Shown in pieces: positions 1 to 40,755 of a stretch of DNA of 64,000 bases. The stretch lies in assembly GCF_988243305.1 (NCBI RefSeq), contig NZ_OZ547136.1, one strand, 5' to 3'. The notes beneath the pieces are model-generated. The model was not told the DNA's origin, ran no database searches, and saw nothing but the letters and a program-made list of their open reading frames with translations. The position numbers and the translations under genes are program-made. Within the stretch, counting starts at the first letter, position 1. Every line of letters starts with the position of its first letter.

Positions 1-1202
1 AAATCCAGCTCAAAACCCGCGCACGCGATAAAGGCTTGCTGGTGATGGGGCCGGACTGCGGTACGTCGATGATTGCCGCCACGCCGCTGGCTTTTGCTAA
101 CGTGATGCCGGAAGGCAATATTGGCGTCATTGGCGCTTCCGGTACCGGGATTCAGGAGCTGTGTTCGCAGATTGCGCTGGCAGGTGAGGGAATTACCCAC
201 GCGATTGGTCTTGGCGGGCGCGACCTCAGCCGTGAAGTGGGCGGCATCAGTGCGCTAACGGCGCTGGAAATGTTAAGCGCCGACGCGAAAAGCGAAGTGC
301 TGGCATTTGTTTCAAAACCACCTGCCGAAGCTGTGCGTCTGAAAATTGTTAATTCCATGAAAGCAACCGGCAAACCGACGGTGGCGCTGTTTTTAGGTTA
401 TACCCCGGCGGTGGCCCGCGACGAGAATGTCTGGTTTGCCTCCTCGCTTGATGAGGCCGCACGCCTGGCTTGCCTGCTTTCACGCGTCACGGCGCGACGT
501 AACGCAATAGCACCTGTCAGCAGCGGATTTATTTGCGGTTTGTATACCGGCGGTACGCTGGCCGCCGAAGCGGCGGGATTACTTGCCGGACAGCTTGGCG
601 TGGAAGCCGATGATGCCCATCATCACGGCATGATGCTCGACGCCGATGGTCACCAGATTATTGACCTCGGCGATGATTTCTACACCGTCGGGCGTCCCCA
701 TCCGATGATCGACCCGACCTTACGCAACCTGTTAATTGCCGATCTCGGCGCTAAACCGCAAGTGCGCGTGTTGCTGCTTGATGTCGTGATTGGCTTCGGT
801 GCGACCGCCGATCCTGCCGCCTCGCTGGTGAGCGCCTGGCAAAAAGCCTGTGCCGCGCGTTCTGACAGCCAACCGCTGTACGCCATTGCCACGGTGACAG
901 GCACTGAACGTGACCCGCAATGCCGCTCGCAGCAAATCGCCACGCTGGAAGATGCGGGGATTGCGGTAGTGAGTTCGCTGCCGGAAGCCACCTTGCTGGC
1001 GGCGGCGCTGATTCATCCGCTCTCGTCTGCCACACAGCCACATACACCGTCATTACTGGAAAACGTCGCCGTGATTAACATTGGATTACGCAGCTTTGCG
1101 CTGGAGCTACAAAGCGCCAGCAAACCGGTTGTGCATTACCAATGGTCGCCAGTCGCCGGCGGCAATAAAAAACTGGCTCGTTTATTAGAACGTTTGCAAT
1201 AA
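1..1202 (+). CDS. fdrA: FdrA-like acyl-CoA synthetase family protein, C-terminal ~400 aa (5' end outside window)
   Basis: Reading frame is open from position 3 to the stop at 1200-1202; succinyl-CoA synthetase alpha-like Gly-rich segments (GVIGASGTG, GLGGRD); lies upstream of ylbE-ylbF-ybcF. Confidence 0.8.
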   Translation, partial: IQLKTRARDKGLLVMGPDCGTSMIAATPLAFANVMPEGNIGVIGASGTGIQELCSQIALAGEGITHAIGLGGRDLSREVGGISALTALEMLSADAKSEVLAFVSKPPAEAVRLKIVNSMKATGKPTVALFLGYTPAVARDENVWFASSLDEAARLACLLSRVTARRNAIAPVSSGFICGLYTGGTLAAEAAGLLAGQLGVEADDAHHHGMMLDADGHQIIDLGDDFYTVGRPHPMIDPTLRNLLIADLGAKPQVRVLLLDVVIGFGATADPAASLVSAWQKACAARSDSQPLYAIATVTGTERDPQCRSQQIATLEDAGIAVVSSLPEATLLAAALIHPLSSATQPHTPSLLENVAVINIGLRSFALELQSASKPVVHYQWSPVAGGNKKLARLLERLQ

Positions 1203-1211
1203 GGGGTTCCC

Positions 1212-2471
1212 ATGTTTACATCAGTGGCGCAAGCCAATGCTGCGGTTATCGAACAAATTCGTCGCGCTCGTCCACACTGGCTGGATGTGCAACCGGCTTC
1301 TTCACTTATCAGCGAACTAAACGAGGGCAAAACACTGCTTCACGCCGGGCCGCCAATGCGCTGGCAGGAGATGACCGGACCCATGAAAGGGGCATGTGTG
1401 GGCGCATGTCTGTTTGAAGGCTGGGCGAAAGATGAAGCGCAGGCGCTGGCAATACTGGAGCAGGGGGAAGTGAACTTCATTCCTTGTCACCATGTGAATG
1501 CCGTCGGGCCAATGGGCGGCATTACTTCTGCCAGTATGCCGATGCTGGTGGTCGAGAACGTGACCGACGGCAACCGGGCGTACTGCAACCTCAACGAAGG
1601 TATCGGCAAAGTGATGCGTTTTGGCGCTTACGGCGAAGATGTCCTGACTCGCCATCGCTGGATGCGCGATGTGTTAATGCCGGTATTAAGCGCGGCGCTG
1701 GGGCGCATGGAGCACGGTATCGATCTCACGGCAATGATGGCGCAGGGCATTACCATGGGCGATGAGTTCCATCAACGCAATATTGCTTCCTCAGCACTGT
1801 TAATGCGTACGCTGGCCCCACAAATTGCTCGCCTCGATCATGATAAACAGCACATTGCGGAAGTGATGGATTTCCTCAGCGTGACCGATCAGTTCTTCCT
1901 CAACCTCGCGATGGCTTACTGCAAGGCGGCGATGGATGCTGGCGCGATGATCCGCGCAGGCAGCATCGTCACGGCAATGACCCGCAACGGCAATATGTTC
2001 GGGATTCGGGTAAGCGGGCTGGGCGAACGCTGGTTTACTGCGCCTGTAAACACTCCGCAAGGTCTGTTTTTCACCGGCTTCTCGCAGGATCTGGCGAACC
2101 CGGATATGGGCGATAGCGCGATTACCGAAACCTTTGGTATTGGCGGAGCCGCAATGATCGCAGCGCCTGGCGTAACGCGCTTTGTCGGTGCGGGTGGCAT
2201 GGAAGCGGCCAGAACCGTTTCTGAAGAGATGGCGGAAATTTACCTTGAGCGCAATATGCAGTTGCAGATCCCAAGCTGGGATTTTCAGGGCGCGTGCCTG
2301 GGGCTGGATATTCGTCGCGTGGTAGAAACCGGCATTACGCCACTCATCAATACCGGTATCGCCCATAAAGAGGCGGGGATCGGGCAGATTGGCGCAGGCA
2401 CTGTGCGGGCACCGCTGGCGTGCTTTGAACAGGCGCTGGAAGCACTGGCTGAAAGCATGGGGATTGGTTGA
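1212..2471 (+). CDS. ylbE: DUF1116-family protein YlbE, uninterrupted 419 aa
   Basis: Single 419-aa ORF starting 10 nt after the fdrA stop; no internal frameshift or stop; gene-order context. Confidence 0.8.
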
Positions 2472-2481
2472 GGAACGCACA

Positions 2482-3297
2482 ATGACGATCATCCATCCTC
2501 TGCTTGCCAGCCGTAGTGCACCGAATTATCGCCAGTCCTGGCGGTTAGCGGGCGTGTGGCGGCGGGCGATTAACCTGATGACGGAAAGCTGTGAATTGTT
2601 AACACTACATCGTCAGGGTAGTGGTTTCGGCCCCGGAGGATGGGTGCTTCGCCGCGCGCAATTCGATGCGTTATGCGGTGGATTATGCGGCAATGAACAA
2701 CCGCAGGTTGTGGCACAAGGGATTCGCCTCGGGCGTTTCACGGTTAAACAGCCACAGCGTTATTGTTTGCTGCGTATTACGCCGCCTGCGCATCCTCAAC
2801 CGCTTGCAGCTGCATGGATGCAACGCGCGGAGGAAACCGGGCTTTTCGGGCCACTGGCGTTGGCGGCAGGCGATCCGCTTCCTGCTGAATTACGCCAGTT
2901 TCGCCACTGTTTTCAGGCCGCGCTCAATGGCGTGAAGACTGACTGGCGGCACTGGCTGGGTAAAGGTCCGGGATTAACGCCAAGTCATGATGACACGCTG
3001 AGCGGAATGCTGCTGGCGGCCTGGTATTATGGCGCTTTAGATGCGCGCTCCGGTCGCCCGTTTTTTGCCTGTTCCGACAATCTTCAACTCGTTACCACAG
3101 CGGTGAGCGTCAGTTATTTACGTTATGCCGCGCAAGGATATTTCGCCTCGCCACTCCTGCACTTTGTCCATGCTCTGAGTTGCCCGAAACGTACCGCTGT
3201 TGCGATTGATTCGCTGCTGGCGCTGGGGCATACGTCAGGGGCAGATACGCTGCTGGGGTTCTGGCTTGGTCAACAATTATTACAAGGAAAACCATGA
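2482..3297 (+). CDS. ylbF: YlbF (DUF2877) protein, 271 aa
   Basis: ATG at 2482 preceded by GAGGAA RBS 10 nt after the ylbE stop; the ORF-track start at 2389 overlaps ylbE and is rejected; stop overlaps the ybcF start (ATGA). Confidence 0.75.
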
Positions 3298-4187
3298 AAA
3301 CACTGGTTGTAGCTCTTGGGGGCAATGCCTTGCTTCAGCGCGGTGAGGCGCTGACGGCAGAAAATCAATATCGCAATATCGCCAGCGCTGTACCCGCACT
3401 GGCGCGCCTGGCCCGTTCTTATCGGCTGGCGATTGTTCACGGCAACGGGCCACAGGTGGGGCTGTTGGCGTTACAGAATCTGGCGTGGAAAGAGGTAGAA
3501 CCGTATCCGCTGGATGTGCTGGTGGCGGAAAGCCAGGGGATGATTGGCTATATGCTGGCGCAGAGCTTGAGCGCACAGCCGCAGATGCCGCCTGTCACGA
3601 CGGTGCTGACGCGCATTGAGGTTTCGCCTGATGATCCGGCGTTTTTGCAGCCAGAGAAGTTTATCGGTCCGGTTTATCAGCCAGAAGAACAAGAGGCACT
3701 GGAAGCGGCTTACGGCTGGCAGATGAAACGTGATGGTAAATATTTGCGCCGGGTGGTGGCGTCTCCGCAACCGCGTAAAATTCTCGACAGCGAAGCCATC
3801 GAGTTGTTGCTCAAAGAGGGGCATGTGGTGATTTGCAGTGGCGGCGGCGGTGTGCCTGTGACGGATGACGGAGCAGGGAGTGAAGCAGTGATTGATAAAG
3901 ATCTCGCCGCTGCGTTGCTCGCCGAGCAGATTAATGCCGATGGGCTGGTGATCCTCACCGATGCTGATGCGGTATATGAAAACTGGGGAACGCCGCAGCA
4001 ACGTGCCATTCGCCATGCCACACCGGATGAGTTAGCGCCATTTGCCAAAGTCGATGGTTCGATGGGGCCGAAGGTAACGGCGGTGAGTGGCTATGTCAGA
4101 AGCCGTGGTAAACCCGCGTGGATTGGGGCGTTATCGCGGATTGAAGAGACGCTAGCGGGCGAAGCGGGGACCTGTATTTCGCTGTAG
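3294..4187 (+). CDS. ybcF: carbamate kinase-like protein, 297 aa
   Basis: N-terminus [18 protein letters not shown] is a typical carbamate kinase / amino-acid kinase start; translationally coupled to ylbF. Confidence 0.85.
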
Positions 4188-4218
4188 TGATGAGAGCATC
4201 CGGCAATCGGCGCACCAT

Positions 4219-4305
4219 GCCTGATGCGACGCTTGACGCGTCTTATCAGGCCTACAATGGGTACCGGAGCGGTAAGCCGGATAAGGCGTTCACGCCGAAT
4301 CCGGC
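4219..4305. repeat. REP/BIME palindromic units (two inverted REP copies)
   Basis: gcctgatgcgacgcttgacgcgtcttatcaggcctac and gccggataaggcgttcacgccgaatccggc match the enterobacterial REP consensus; sits between convergent ybcF and purK. Confidence 0.7.
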
Positions 4306-4323
4306 AAGAATATGAGCACCAGG

Positions 4324-5391
4324 TTAATTGAACTTACTCTGCGCCCAAATCACGCCGCTGGCATACTCCGGCGGCAGAAGCGGGATTAAGGCTTCCAGCG
4401 TTGCGGTCAGACGCGATGTGTCGCTGTCGGTCAAATTCAGATGCCCCACTTTACGGCCCGGACGGACTTCTTTGTCGTACCAGTGCAGATGCACCAGCGG
4501 CAGTTTCAGCCAGTCATAATTCACATCGCTACCAATCAGGTTGATCATCACCGACGGACTATTCACTACCGGTTGCGGTAACGGCAGATCGGTAATCGCC
4601 CGCAGATGCAGCTCAAACTGGCTGATGCTGGCACCGTTTTGTGTCCAGTGACCGCTGTTATGCACACGAGGAGCCAGTTCGTTGATCAACAGACCTTGCG
4701 GGGTGACAAAACACTCCATTGCCATCACGCCTACATAGCCCAGCTCCTGCATAATCGCCGACAACATCTCTTCGGCTTGTGTTTGTTGCTGTGCGTTGGC
4801 CTGCGGAAAAGCGACGCTGGTGCGCAAAATGCCTTCCTGATGCAGGTTATGCGTCAGCGGATAAAACACGGTGCTGCCATCAAAACCGCGCGCGCCAACC
4901 AGCGACACTTCACCAGAGAAGTTAATGCCCTGCTCGACAATACATTCGCCGTAACACTCTGCCGGTAACTGTTCGGTTTCATCGGCGCGTAAACGCCATT
5001 GACCGCGTCCGTCATAGCCACCAGTGCGACGCTTAACAATCGCCAGCTCACCTAAACGATCAAACACCGCAGGCCACTCGCTGCGATCGGCAAGTAACTG
5101 CCACGGTGCGGTCGGCAGGTGAAGCTTGTCGAAAAGCAGCTTCTGAGTCAGACGGTCAGCAATAATCGGGAATACATCGCGGTTCACAAAGGCCGGATGG
5201 CGCGCCAGCTCGCGGGTTAATGCGGTTTCCGGCCAGCGTTCGATCTCAGCGGTAATCACGCTTTGTTGAAAAGGCACCGCCGCCGGTTCAGCGTCCAGTC
5301 CGACCGGCCAGACAGCAATGCCTAACGGTTCGCCTGCCTGACGCAGCATACGGCCTAACTGCCCGTTACCGAGGACGCAAACCTGTTTCAT
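4324..5391 (-). CDS. purK: N5-carboxyaminoimidazole ribonucleotide synthase, 355 aa
   Basis: 355-aa ATP-grasp protein; start overlaps the purE stop (ATGA); purEK operon context. Confidence 0.95.
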
Positions 5392-11560: not shown

Positions 11561-11778
11561 TCAAAACCACGTTGTTTTGAATTATATATCACGTCTTATA
11601 ACAAAGTAATGTACCGGTTGTCTGAAGCGGTATGGTGGCAATGTAAATCGAAATCACGTTCACTTTGTATCATGCCGCTTTATTAAATGAAAAGGGAATG
11701 ATGTGTGTAAGAAACCAAAGCAATCATTTCTTTATACTCCTTATTTTTGCCGTCAGGAATACACAAGGCGTATTAACT

Positions 11779-38763: not shown

Positions 38764-39093
38764 TTATGTTGGCGTTTTCTATTCAGTATAGAAGTGGGAG
38801 CGACTGGGCGAGATGCGGAAGTTCTGGAATGTTTTTTTTTGATGATGGTGACTGAAGCAAATTGGCTACATTTTGCAATATGACAAGTTATGGCAGTGCG
38901 GACTGGTGGCGAAGAATTTTGACGATTGAGGCATGCAGAAAAAACGGGTTCAGCTTCAGTTGATCAAATGAGGATTGAGAAGTCCGAAACAGGACTTACT
39001 GTATAAATAAACAGCTATTTTGCTAAGGAAGGGTAAGATAACGGCGGGTGCCTGAAGCTTTCCGGTTTCAGGTTTACTCTGAGGTCTGGAAAG

Positions 39094-39282
39094 ATGAAGC
39101 CCCAGGACGATATTTCTATCAACCCTGGGGCTGCCACTCCAAACCCAAACAATTTGGATGGTAGTCCCTTCTTCGCATGGAGGCAATATAAACATGCTGA
39201 CGAAATATGCCCTTGCGGCAGTCATAGTGCTGTGTTTGACGGTGCTGGGATTTACGCTTCTGGTCGGAGACTCGCTGTGTGA
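39094..39282 (+). CDS. Mok-like overlapping reading frame, 62 aa, copy 1
   Basis: ORF starts 100 nt upstream of hok and overlaps it out of frame, as in hok/sok systems. Confidence 0.5.
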
Positions 39283-39346: not shown

Positions 39347-39597
39347 CCGTTGTGCGGGGAGTAATCCCCGCATATCCGGTTGTCAGGTCAGGGTGGTAAG
39401 GCACCTGCTTTACACTTTCGCCCGCGGTCAGCAATGGCTGCGGGCGATGTCGTTTTAAGGGCAATGATCAGTTTTGCCAACAGAAGTCCGAAACAGGATT
39501 CACTGTATAAATAAACAGCTATTTTGCTGAGGAAGGGTAAGATAACGGCGGGTGCCTGAAGCTTTCCGGTTTCAGGTTAACTCTGAGGTCTGGAAAG

Positions 39598-39786
39598 ATG
39601 AAGCCCCAGGACGATATTTCTATCAACCCTGGGGCTACCTACCCAAACCTGAACAATTTGGATGGTAGTCCCTTCTTCGCATGGAGGCAATATAAACATG
39701 CTGACGAAATATGCCCTTGTGGCAGTCATAGTGCTGTGTTTAACGGTGCTGGGATTTACGCTTCTGGTCGGAGACTCGCTGTGTGA
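39598..39786 (+). CDS. Mok-like overlapping reading frame, 62 aa, copy 2
   Basis: Paralog of copy-1 mok with a few substitutions (AATPNPN to ATYPNLN, D49N). Confidence 0.5.
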
Positions 39787-40657: not shown

Positions 40658-40755
40658 GCCTGATGCGCTACGCTTATCAGGCCTACGTGGTCCTGCAATA
40701 TATTGAATTGGCAAGATTTTTGTAGGCCGGATAAGGCGTTCACGCCGCATCCGGC
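40658..40755. repeat. REP/BIME palindromic units between entD and fepA
   Basis: gcctgatgcgctacgcttatcaggcctac and gtaggccggataaggcgttcacgccgcatccggc match the REP consensus. Confidence 0.7.

Follow-up and report, generated by a model that had tools for sequence, protein, structure and literature searches.

Organization of the allFGHK Locus

The DNA analyzed here (the window) is a stretch of 64,000 nt from contig NZ_OZ547136.1 of assembly GCF_988243305.1, and its first 4187 nt carry fdrA-ylbE-ylbF-ybcF (allFGHK), followed by a spacer and the convergent gene purK. Gene integrity, orthology, operon layout and population frequency were established for this region. The following features were located:

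1..1202, plus strand: 3' part of fdrA/allF (codons 157-555 and stop), oxamic transcarbamylase large subunit; gene cut by the window start
1203..1211, plus strand: fdrA-ylbE spacer, 9 nt, reading TAAGGGGTTCCCATG, with a Shine-Dalgarno-like AAGGGG
1212..2471, plus strand: ylbE/allG, intact 419-aa ORF with ATG start, oxamic transcarbamylase subunit
1463..1467, plus strand: G5 homopolymer in ylbE (gene nt 252-256), the frameshift site of the old K-12 record (G4)
2472-2481, plus strand: ylbE-ylbF spacer, 10 nt, with a Shine-Dalgarno GAGGAA
2482..3297, plus strand: ylbF/allH, intact, 271 aa, start placed as in K-12, oxamic transcarbamylase subunit
3294-3297, plus strand: ylbF/ybcF overlap, 4-nt ATGA
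3294..4187, plus strand: ybcF/allK, intact 297-aa catabolic carbamate kinase, its ATG overlapping the ylbF stop (ATGA)
4188..4323, no strand assigned: ybcF-purK spacer, 136 nt between convergent genes, with imperfect palindromes at 4219-4251 and 4276-4305

Gene content, order and strand are shared with the allFGHK operon of K-12 MG1655 (fdrA b0518, ylbE b4572, ylbF b0520, ybcF b0521; NC_000913.3 546680-551332), as are the lengths of ylbE, ylbF and ybcF and the presence of convergent purK as the downstream neighbor. The four genes were 96.0-97.8% identical to those of K-12 in nucleotides and 96.5-99.3% identical in amino acids with zero indels, fdrA being compared over the part inside the window, and 130 nucleotide differences were counted across the 4187 nt. 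These amounted to 14 amino acid differences in FdrA (in 399 aa), five in YlbE, four in YlbF and two in YbcF. The dN/dS values against K-12 were 0.155, 0.063, 0.051 and 0.027, respectively, and this range of 0.027-0.155 in all four genes therefore indicates purifying selection.

The final 1202 of the 1668 nt of fdrA lie inside the window, where nothing interrupts the frame between nt 3 and the terminal stop codon at 1200-1202, and the first 466 nt lie before its start. The encoded fragment matched the NCBIfam model NF004760, “acyl-CoA synthetase FdrA,” with 726 bits (cutoff 433) over profile positions 157-555 of 555, and also PDB entry 3dmy, “Protein fdrA” (E=3e-249). YlbE matched Pfam PF06545 AllG (E=9.7e-97) and PDB 3clq, an AllG homolog (E=1e-110). 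YlbF, with 267 of its 271 residues identical to K-12, matched Pfam PF11392 AllH (E=7e-29); a search of the PDB with its sequence gave no match, and no family model in NCBIfam release 20 matched either YlbE or YlbF. A longer, TTG-started ORF at 2389..3297 was set aside as a mechanical listing, and the start of ylbF was taken to be that of K-12. YbcF matched over its full length both the NCBIfam equivalog NF006926 carbamate kinase (619 bits, cutoff 416) and TIGR00746 arcC (424.2 bits, cutoff 358.25).

The initial annotation had described the spacing as a 10-nt gap followed by ATGA-type overlaps; what was found is a 9-nt gap, a 10-nt gap and a single 4-nt ATGA overlap, and the spacing in K-12 is identical. 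Its proposal of a single operon was borne out by the tight spacing, by the lack of any internal promoter- or terminator-like site, and by RT-PCR in MG1655, where fdrA-ylbE-ylbF-ybcF are co-transcribed (PMC9843812). A simple consensus scan of 1..4400 on both strands found no promoter-like or terminator-like site and no canonical T-tract terminator, a result that fits a single transcription unit and offers no positive mark of where the transcript ends. One mRNA would be translated into all four proteins, from a promoter expected upstream of allF and outside the window.

The transcript probably ends in the ybcF-purK spacer (4188..4323). We take the two palindromes in this spacer to be REP-type elements. 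The K-12 spacer measures 194 nt and contains an extra GCCTGATGCGACGC...CAGGCCTAC palindromic unit, whereas that of the window is 58 nt shorter and has one unit fewer.

We conclude that the region is, almost certainly, the ordinary E. coli allFGHK operon. Its products, the oxamic transcarbamylase AllFGH and the carbamate kinase AllK, perform the final two reactions when allantoin is degraded anaerobically through the oxamate branch.

Completeness of the Operon and Lineage-Specific Alleles

The cluster had initially been described as complete. This was confirmed for ylbE, ylbF and ybcF, which are intact in the window, but not for fdrA, which is truncated at the window start; the completeness of the cluster therefore cannot be read from the window. 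Three near-identical public assemblies (L003-L005) carry a full 555-aa fdrA, codons 1-156 included and intact, preceded by allD-allC-allE. Their alignments with the window, 4.2-12.5 kb long, contained 0-1 mismatches, and the third assembly is identical up to an indel near window position 11,707. Because the window covers neither the promoter nor the first 466 nt of allF, the statements on completeness and regulation in the source genome rest on these assemblies. In their contigs, the divergent allD lies 316 nt upstream of allF, as in K-12.

In K-12, the allFGHK promoter upstream of allF is activated by AllS and ArcA, and EMSA fragments place AllS binding at -203/-144 and ArcA binding at -142/-83 (PMC12535856). 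The allD-allF control region of contig L003 differs from K-12 by 12 substitutions located between -195 and -73, and these overlap the fragments bound by both regulators. AllF is, in addition, the most diverged of the four proteins; its substitutions within the window include the cluster P498S/A500T/Q502P, and a fifteenth substitution, N119S, was found in L003 upstream of the window start. One substitution in AllF, D296Y, has a known effect on flux. These observations raise the alternative that this lineage has intact genes but a silent or modified module, owing to the changes in AllF or in the AllS/ArcA control region, with ureidoglycolate passing into the glyoxylate/glycerate branch. This is highly unlikely. 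The dN/dS values are well below 1 in all four genes, D296Y was looked for in the window allele and not found, D296 being unchanged, and no gene carries a disrupting indel in the 41-kb stretch that has the same gene order as another E. coli chromosome. Only six small indels, intergenic or compensating, were detected in that stretch, and neither IS elements nor gene-disrupting indels were found in it. Moreover, many independent public contigs encode exactly this YlbE protein, which marks it as the product of an allele that is maintained in nature and is not in decay.

The lineage may be poorly represented among complete RefSeq genomes. The best identity to any of the 5,426 complete E. coli genomes was 97.8% in the operon and 98.8% over the 24.6 kb that follow it, and none reached 99% over multi-kb window queries. 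A lineage-specific 36-mer (window 1004-1039) had no match among the GTDB species representatives. A Shigella source was considered in view of these identities and is unlikely, given the 41 kb of collinearity with an E. coli chromosome, the small number of indels and the lack of IS elements in that stretch. There is a slim chance that the AllF allele with its 15 substitutions, together with the diverged control region, might shift the split between oxamate and glyoxylate quantitatively. The alleles of this strain would be expected to be active.

The ylbE Reading Frame and the K-12 Frameshift Allele

As first noticed in the initial annotation, ylbE is uninterrupted: 1212..2471 on the plus strand encodes 419 aa with zero internal stops. 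An open frame of 419 codons is far beyond chance, since (61/64)^419 is ~2e-9. The pairwise alignment with K-12 ylbE was gap-free over all 1260 nt (97.8% identity), and 414 of the 419 residues were identical.

The frame is intact because the run at 1463-1467 is G5 and not G4. The window and NC_000913.3 have the G-run at the matching position of the ylbE gene, and removal of one G from the G5 run produced, when computed, a stop at codon 87. The K-12 frameshift allele of the old MG1655 record and of W3110, identical to the window in the sequence flanking the run, has G4 and hence this early stop. In published work the +G insertion of K-12 ylbE is located at about nt 253, and the frameshift has also been described as variation among MG1655 stocks. 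Elsewhere it is reported to occur in no other sequenced E. coli and to be possibly a sequencing error (PMC3364942). The “K-12 pseudogene” came from a G5 run that the old MG1655 record gave one G short, and the W3110 record still has this allele.

Population data agree with an intact gene as the usual state. At 100% identity and full coverage, the G4 frameshift allele was found, among the matches listed, in four of 5,426 complete E. coli genomes, namely W3110 and three K-12-like records. The gene itself was present at a coverage of at least 80% in 5,417 of these genomes, and a pseudogene frequency below 1% would be expected among its 5,420 hits. An open ylbE frame is the ancestral condition and is nearly universal.

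It had been suggested that this strain is special: its ylbE would be functional and its oxamate-branch module therefore complete, whereas K-12 would lack that module owing to the ylbE frameshift. The premise of this suggestion, that ylbE is a pseudogene in K-12 MG1655, holds for older MG1655 records, and the W3110 RefSeq record (NC_007779.1, Y75_RS02660) still contains a 1259-nt ylbE flagged as “frameshifted”; it does not hold for the current MG1655 reference, NC_000913.3, in which ylbE (b4572) is annotated as an intact 1260-nt CDS. The initial annotation had itself allowed that an intact K-12 ylbE would count against its reading, and MG1655 has one. Furthermore, wild-type MG1655 produced 17.7 mM oxamate from 19.5 mM allantoin, whereas its allG deletion mutant produced none, and the recombinant AllFGH enzyme was cloned from MG1655 DNA (PMC11326118). 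With the rarity of the G4 allele and its suspected origin as a sequencing error added to this, the chance that the strain is special in having a complete module is very remote. An uninterrupted ylbE is the norm in E. coli, and the reference sequence now in use for K-12 MG1655 is no exception; the finding is therefore an ordinary one.

Enzymatic Functions Encoded by the Operon

The enzyme activities and the regulation described in this work are taken from the literature on K-12 and MG1655, not from this DNA. The assignment of the cluster to an oxamate carbamoyltransferase and a carbamate kinase, proposed initially, was right and has now been demonstrated (PMC11326118; PMC9843812). Purified AllF-AllG-AllH is an oxamic transcarbamylase that catalyzes oxamate + carbamoyl phosphate <-> oxalurate + Pi. 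By itself FdrA is inactive, and the production of oxamate is lost in each of the single deletions, that of allG/ylbE among them (PMC11326118). YbcF/AllK is a catabolic carbamate kinase whose activity has been shown (PMC9843812).

The RefSeq labels for the AllG and AllH genes are mostly “DUF1116” and “DUF2877,” and Pfam now names those families AllG and AllH.

Most RefSeq genomes still name the first gene “acyl-CoA synthetase FdrA,” which corresponds to the reading that FdrA is an acyl-CoA synthetase (e.g., an oxamate:CoA ligase), that the roles of YlbE and YlbF are unrelated and unknown, and that the cluster is not a transcarbamylase. The full-length AllF encoded on a near-identical contig has the Pfam domains CoA_binding and Ligase_CoA, and FdrA is weakly similar to the alpha subunit of succinyl-CoA synthetase (E about 1e-5); but the phmmer alignment to this subunit covers only residues 6-134 of the fragment with about 28 bits and stops at “...GRT” (chain residue 245), and the cutoffs of the SucD family are missed by far (NF004230, 31.6 bits vs. 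336; TIGR01019, 27.4 vs. 353). The phosphohistidine loop of the alpha subunit, with its catalytic histidine, presumably lies just past the point where the FdrA alignment ends, and a GHAGA-like motif, sought by eye in FdrA, was not seen. The SucD family can be regarded as a fold relative of AllF, with the similarity confined to the CoA-binding/flavodoxin-like region, whereas what AllF has been shown to do, and only together with AllG and AllH, is to transfer a carbamoyl group by phosphorolysis. Given that the three proteins together were shown to be the oxamic transcarbamylase and that FdrA alone was inactive (PMC11326118), the probability of an acyl-CoA synthetase reading is practically negligible.

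AllFGH performs the same class of chemistry as the classical transcarbamylases (ATCase PyrB, OTCase ArgI/ArgF, YgeW), a carbamoyl transfer in which carbamoyl phosphate is either donor or product, but differs from them in having no sequence similarity (PMC11326118) and in consisting of three different subunits instead of a single catalytic chain. No transcarbamylase family was matched in the NCBIfam and Pfam scans of the operon proteins. AllK, in turn, resembles the ArcC-type carbamate kinases of the arginine deiminase pathway, since it likewise passes the arcC equivalog and converts CP + ADP into ATP + carbamate. Unlike these, it is encoded beside the allantoin genes and not in an arc operon, and its substrate is supplied by oxamic transcarbamylase and not by a catabolic OTCase.

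In the pathway established for K-12, AllD oxidizes ureidoglycolate to oxalurate, and the three-subunit enzyme AllF-AllG-AllH (EC 2.1.3.5) converts oxalurate + phosphate into oxamate + carbamoyl phosphate. AllK (EC 2.7.2.2) then phosphorylates ADP with the latter, so that ATP is formed together with carbamate, which breaks down to NH3 and CO2. Since carbamate gives NH3 and AllK gives ATP, the oxamate branch yields nitrogen and one ATP. The window alleles are predicted to catalyze these same transcarbamylase and kinase steps.

Significance of the Locus

Studies of K-12 published from 2021 to 2025 elucidated the operon, its enzymes and its regulation, and an intact ylbE is usual in E. coli; the significance of the present locus is accordingly small. 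The RefSeq labels “acyl-CoA synthetase FdrA,” “DUF1116” and “DUF2877” lag behind the AllG/AllH naming in Pfam. The “K-12 ylbE pseudogene” belongs to a superseded MG1655 record, and is unfit for use as a difference between K-12 and wild strains.

Organization and Conservation of the allFGHK Operon

[quoted passage not shown] As stated in the initial annotation, ylbE is a continuous ORF of 419 aa without any interruption.

Genes of the operon in the window and their comparison with K-12 MG1655
Open frame between nt 3 and the stop at 1200-1202, + strand: fdrA/allF, partial, codons 157-555; 96.0% nt identity, 14 aa differences in 399 aa
1212..2471, + strand: ylbE/allG, ATG start, uninterrupted 419-aa ORF (ORF list and raw sequence); 97.8% nt identity, 5 aa differences in 419 aa
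2482..3297, + strand: ylbF/allH, ATG at 2482, 271-aa ORF; 96.6% nt identity, 4 aa differences in 271 aa
3294..4187, + strand: ybcF/allK, 297-aa ORF; 97.2% nt identity, 2 aa differences in 297 aa

No indels were observed in the four alignments, and the dN/dS values (Nei-Gojobori) of 0.155 for fdrA, 0.063 for ylbE, 0.051 for ylbF, and 0.027 for ybcF point to purifying selection on all of these genes. The FdrA fragment matched the NCBIfam model NF004760 (726 bits, cutoff 433) and YbcF the carbamate kinase equivalog NF006926 (619 bits, cutoff 416). YlbE and YlbF were assigned to Pfam PF06545 "Oxamate carbamoyltransferase subunit AllG" (E=9.7e-97) and PF11392 "AllH" (E=7e-29); no model matching either was found in NCBIfam release 20. 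A PDB structure is available for FdrA (3dmy, E=3e-249); YlbE matched the structure of a homolog (3clq, E=1e-110), and the sequence search with YlbF gave no match.

The three junctions, TAAGGGGTTCCCATG, TGAGGAACGCACAATG, and AAGGAAAACCATGA, consist of gaps of 9 and 10 nt and a single 4-nt ATGA overlap, and a purine run resembling a Shine-Dalgarno sequence precedes each start. One 10-nt gap followed by ATGA-type overlaps had been described before, but there are two gaps and only one overlap. Neither a sigma-70-like promoter nor an intrinsic-terminator-like site was detected by scanning 1..4400, which is consistent with one transcription unit. The proposal of an operon was right, given these tight junctions and the recovery by RT-PCR in MG1655 of all transcripts spanning two, three, or four genes of the fdrA-ylbE-ylbF-ybcF series (PMC9843812).

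Downstream, ybcF is separated from the convergent purK by a 136-nt spacer (4188-4323) with two imperfect palindromes, which we take to be of REP type. In K-12 this spacer has 194 nt and one more copy of the palindromic (REP-like) unit GCCTGATGCGACGC...CAGGCCTAC.

The fdrA 5′ End and the Upstream Region in Relatives

The cluster had been considered complete, and this stands for ylbE, but the window edge cuts fdrA, of whose 1668 nt the 3′-terminal 1202 are present (codons 157-555); the full cluster was seen in near-identical relatives. The public collection contains the exact YlbE protein in 178 of its blocks, and three contigs were returned for it (GCA_029362355.1, GCA_974490345.1, and GCA_051184515.1). 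Of these contigs, L003 matches the window over 12,471 nt except for 1 mismatch, L005 matches it over 4,234 nt with 0 mismatches, and L004 is identical as far as an indel near window position 11,707. All three carry the full 555-aa fdrA, separated by a 316-nt spacer from the divergent allD-allC-allE, with glxK, ybbY, allB, and the allantoin transporter farther upstream, and the full-length AllF from a near-identical contig contains the Pfam CoA_binding and Ligase_CoA domains. Judging from these relatives, the cluster of the source genome is almost certainly complete.

In K-12 MG1655, AllS and ArcA activate the promoter that lies upstream of allF, and both proteins bind it in EMSA (PMC12535856). 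The allD-allF control region of L003 (8008-8323, outside the window) differs from K-12 by 12 substitutions between -195 and -73 of the allF ATG, in the stretch of the K-12 AllS- and ArcA-binding EMSA fragments (PMC12535856).

Lineage of the Source Strain

The highest identity among 5,426 complete RefSeq E. coli genomes was 97.8% for 1-4400 and 98.8% for 4400-29000; a dog isolate reached 99.6%, in ylbE alone. Three NCBI assemblies (draft or complete) were identical or nearly identical to the window. Despite the low best identities, the window is collinear with E. coli Z1323HEC0462 across 41 kb; the six indels in that stretch are small and either intergenic or compensating, and IS elements are absent from it. 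The source therefore appears to belong to an under-represented, otherwise normal E. coli lineage.

Mismatches to Z1323HEC0462 are unevenly spread around fdrA and ylbE (15 in 601-800 versus 0 in 1201-1400), a pattern that suggests mosaic recombination. A divergence cluster was also observed at fdrA codons ~498-502 (window 1000-1040; P498S, A500T, and Q502P); whether compared with K-12 or with the best complete genome, 6 of 36 nt differ there.

By synteny, the tRNA at 17534-17607 is argU, and envY lies directly next to it in the collinear Z1323HEC0462, so the lineage is predicted to be without a DLP12-type prophage at the argU-envY site; K-12 presumably carries one at argU. Two tandem copies of a hok/sok-type toxin-antitoxin (39046-39202 and 39550-39706; Rfam sok, 82-84 bits) correspond to the two annotated hokE genes of Z1323HEC0462, between which lies an annotated pseudogene with an internal stop. 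One further Rfam match was obtained:

40679-40720, - strand: ES036 (CssrF) sRNA, Rfam, 42.2 bits (gathering score 37.6)

Function of the Operon

The function given in the initial annotation as proposed is correct and now experimental, from assays of AllFGH and YbcF carried out throughout in K-12 MG1655 (PMC11326118; PMC9843812). The wild type converted 19.5 mM allantoin to 17.7 mM oxamate, while deletion of allF or allG abolished oxamate and deletion of allH left 1.2 mM, with oxalate building up in all three mutants; the triple mutant was rescued only by allFGH together (PMC11326118). Purified His-tagged AllF-AllG-AllH formed oxalurate from oxamate and carbamoyl phosphate, with Km values of 36.9 and 1.3 mM, respectively, and FdrA by itself was inactive (PMC11326118). 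Purified YbcF produced ATP from carbamoyl phosphate and ADP (Km ~0.47 mM for carbamoyl phosphate; PMC9843812). In the best-supported mechanism, by analogy with these experiments, AllFGH encoded in the window would split oxalurate phosphorolytically, AllK would then perform substrate-level phosphorylation, and carbamate would finally yield NH3 and CO2.

AllF is distantly related to the succinyl-CoA synthetase alpha subunit, but the scores (~28-32 bits) are far under the family cutoffs and the alignment ends at residue 134 of the fragment; the older acyl-CoA synthetase label thus reflects fold resemblance, not membership. Most RefSeq genomes still carry it for fdrA. RefSeq names are also inconsistent for YlbE ("DUF1116 domain-containing protein" or "YlbE family protein") and YlbF ("DUF2877" or "oxamate carbamoyltransferase subunit AllH family protein").

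ylbE in K-12 and Other E. coli Genomes

The idea that the module is complete here but not in K-12 is outdated. In MG1655 NC_000913.3, ylbE (b4572, 548357..549616) is an intact 1260-nt CDS encoding YP_009029994.1, the very observation that had been named beforehand as refuting that idea. In the literature, the historical frameshift is documented as known variation among MG1655 stocks, and the change in NCM3722 "restored an intact ancestral gene". The alignment proposed for locating the frameshift was gap-free against NC_000913.3. The frameshift site lies in a G5 run at ylbE nt 252-256 (window 1463-1467), present in both sequences; removal of one G brings a stop at codon 87.

When a 69-mer carrying the G4 allele was searched against the 5,426 complete genomes, four of the listed records matched it over the full length at 100% identity, namely W3110 (NC_007779.1), CIT, LIM, and CAR, the last three with matches at K-12 coordinates; the band of at least 99% held 5 records overall. 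In W3110, ylbE (547581-548839) has 1259 nt and is flagged "frameshifted". Other ylbE lesions are rare in these genomes: ECA64 (NZ_OZ392456.1 2781627-2782880) lacks 1 nt close to the 3′ end of the gene, and in AR_0085 (NZ_CP029741.1 3801904-3803569) a deletion fuses fdrA to ylbE. The lesions in W3110, ECA64, and AR_0085 may be either real or assembly-derived.

The intact ylbE and the allFGHK operon are already known. Since ylbE was found at a coverage of at least 80% in 5,417 of the 5,426 complete genomes and its lesions are rare, an uninterrupted ylbE is the default state of E. coli and not special to the source strain.
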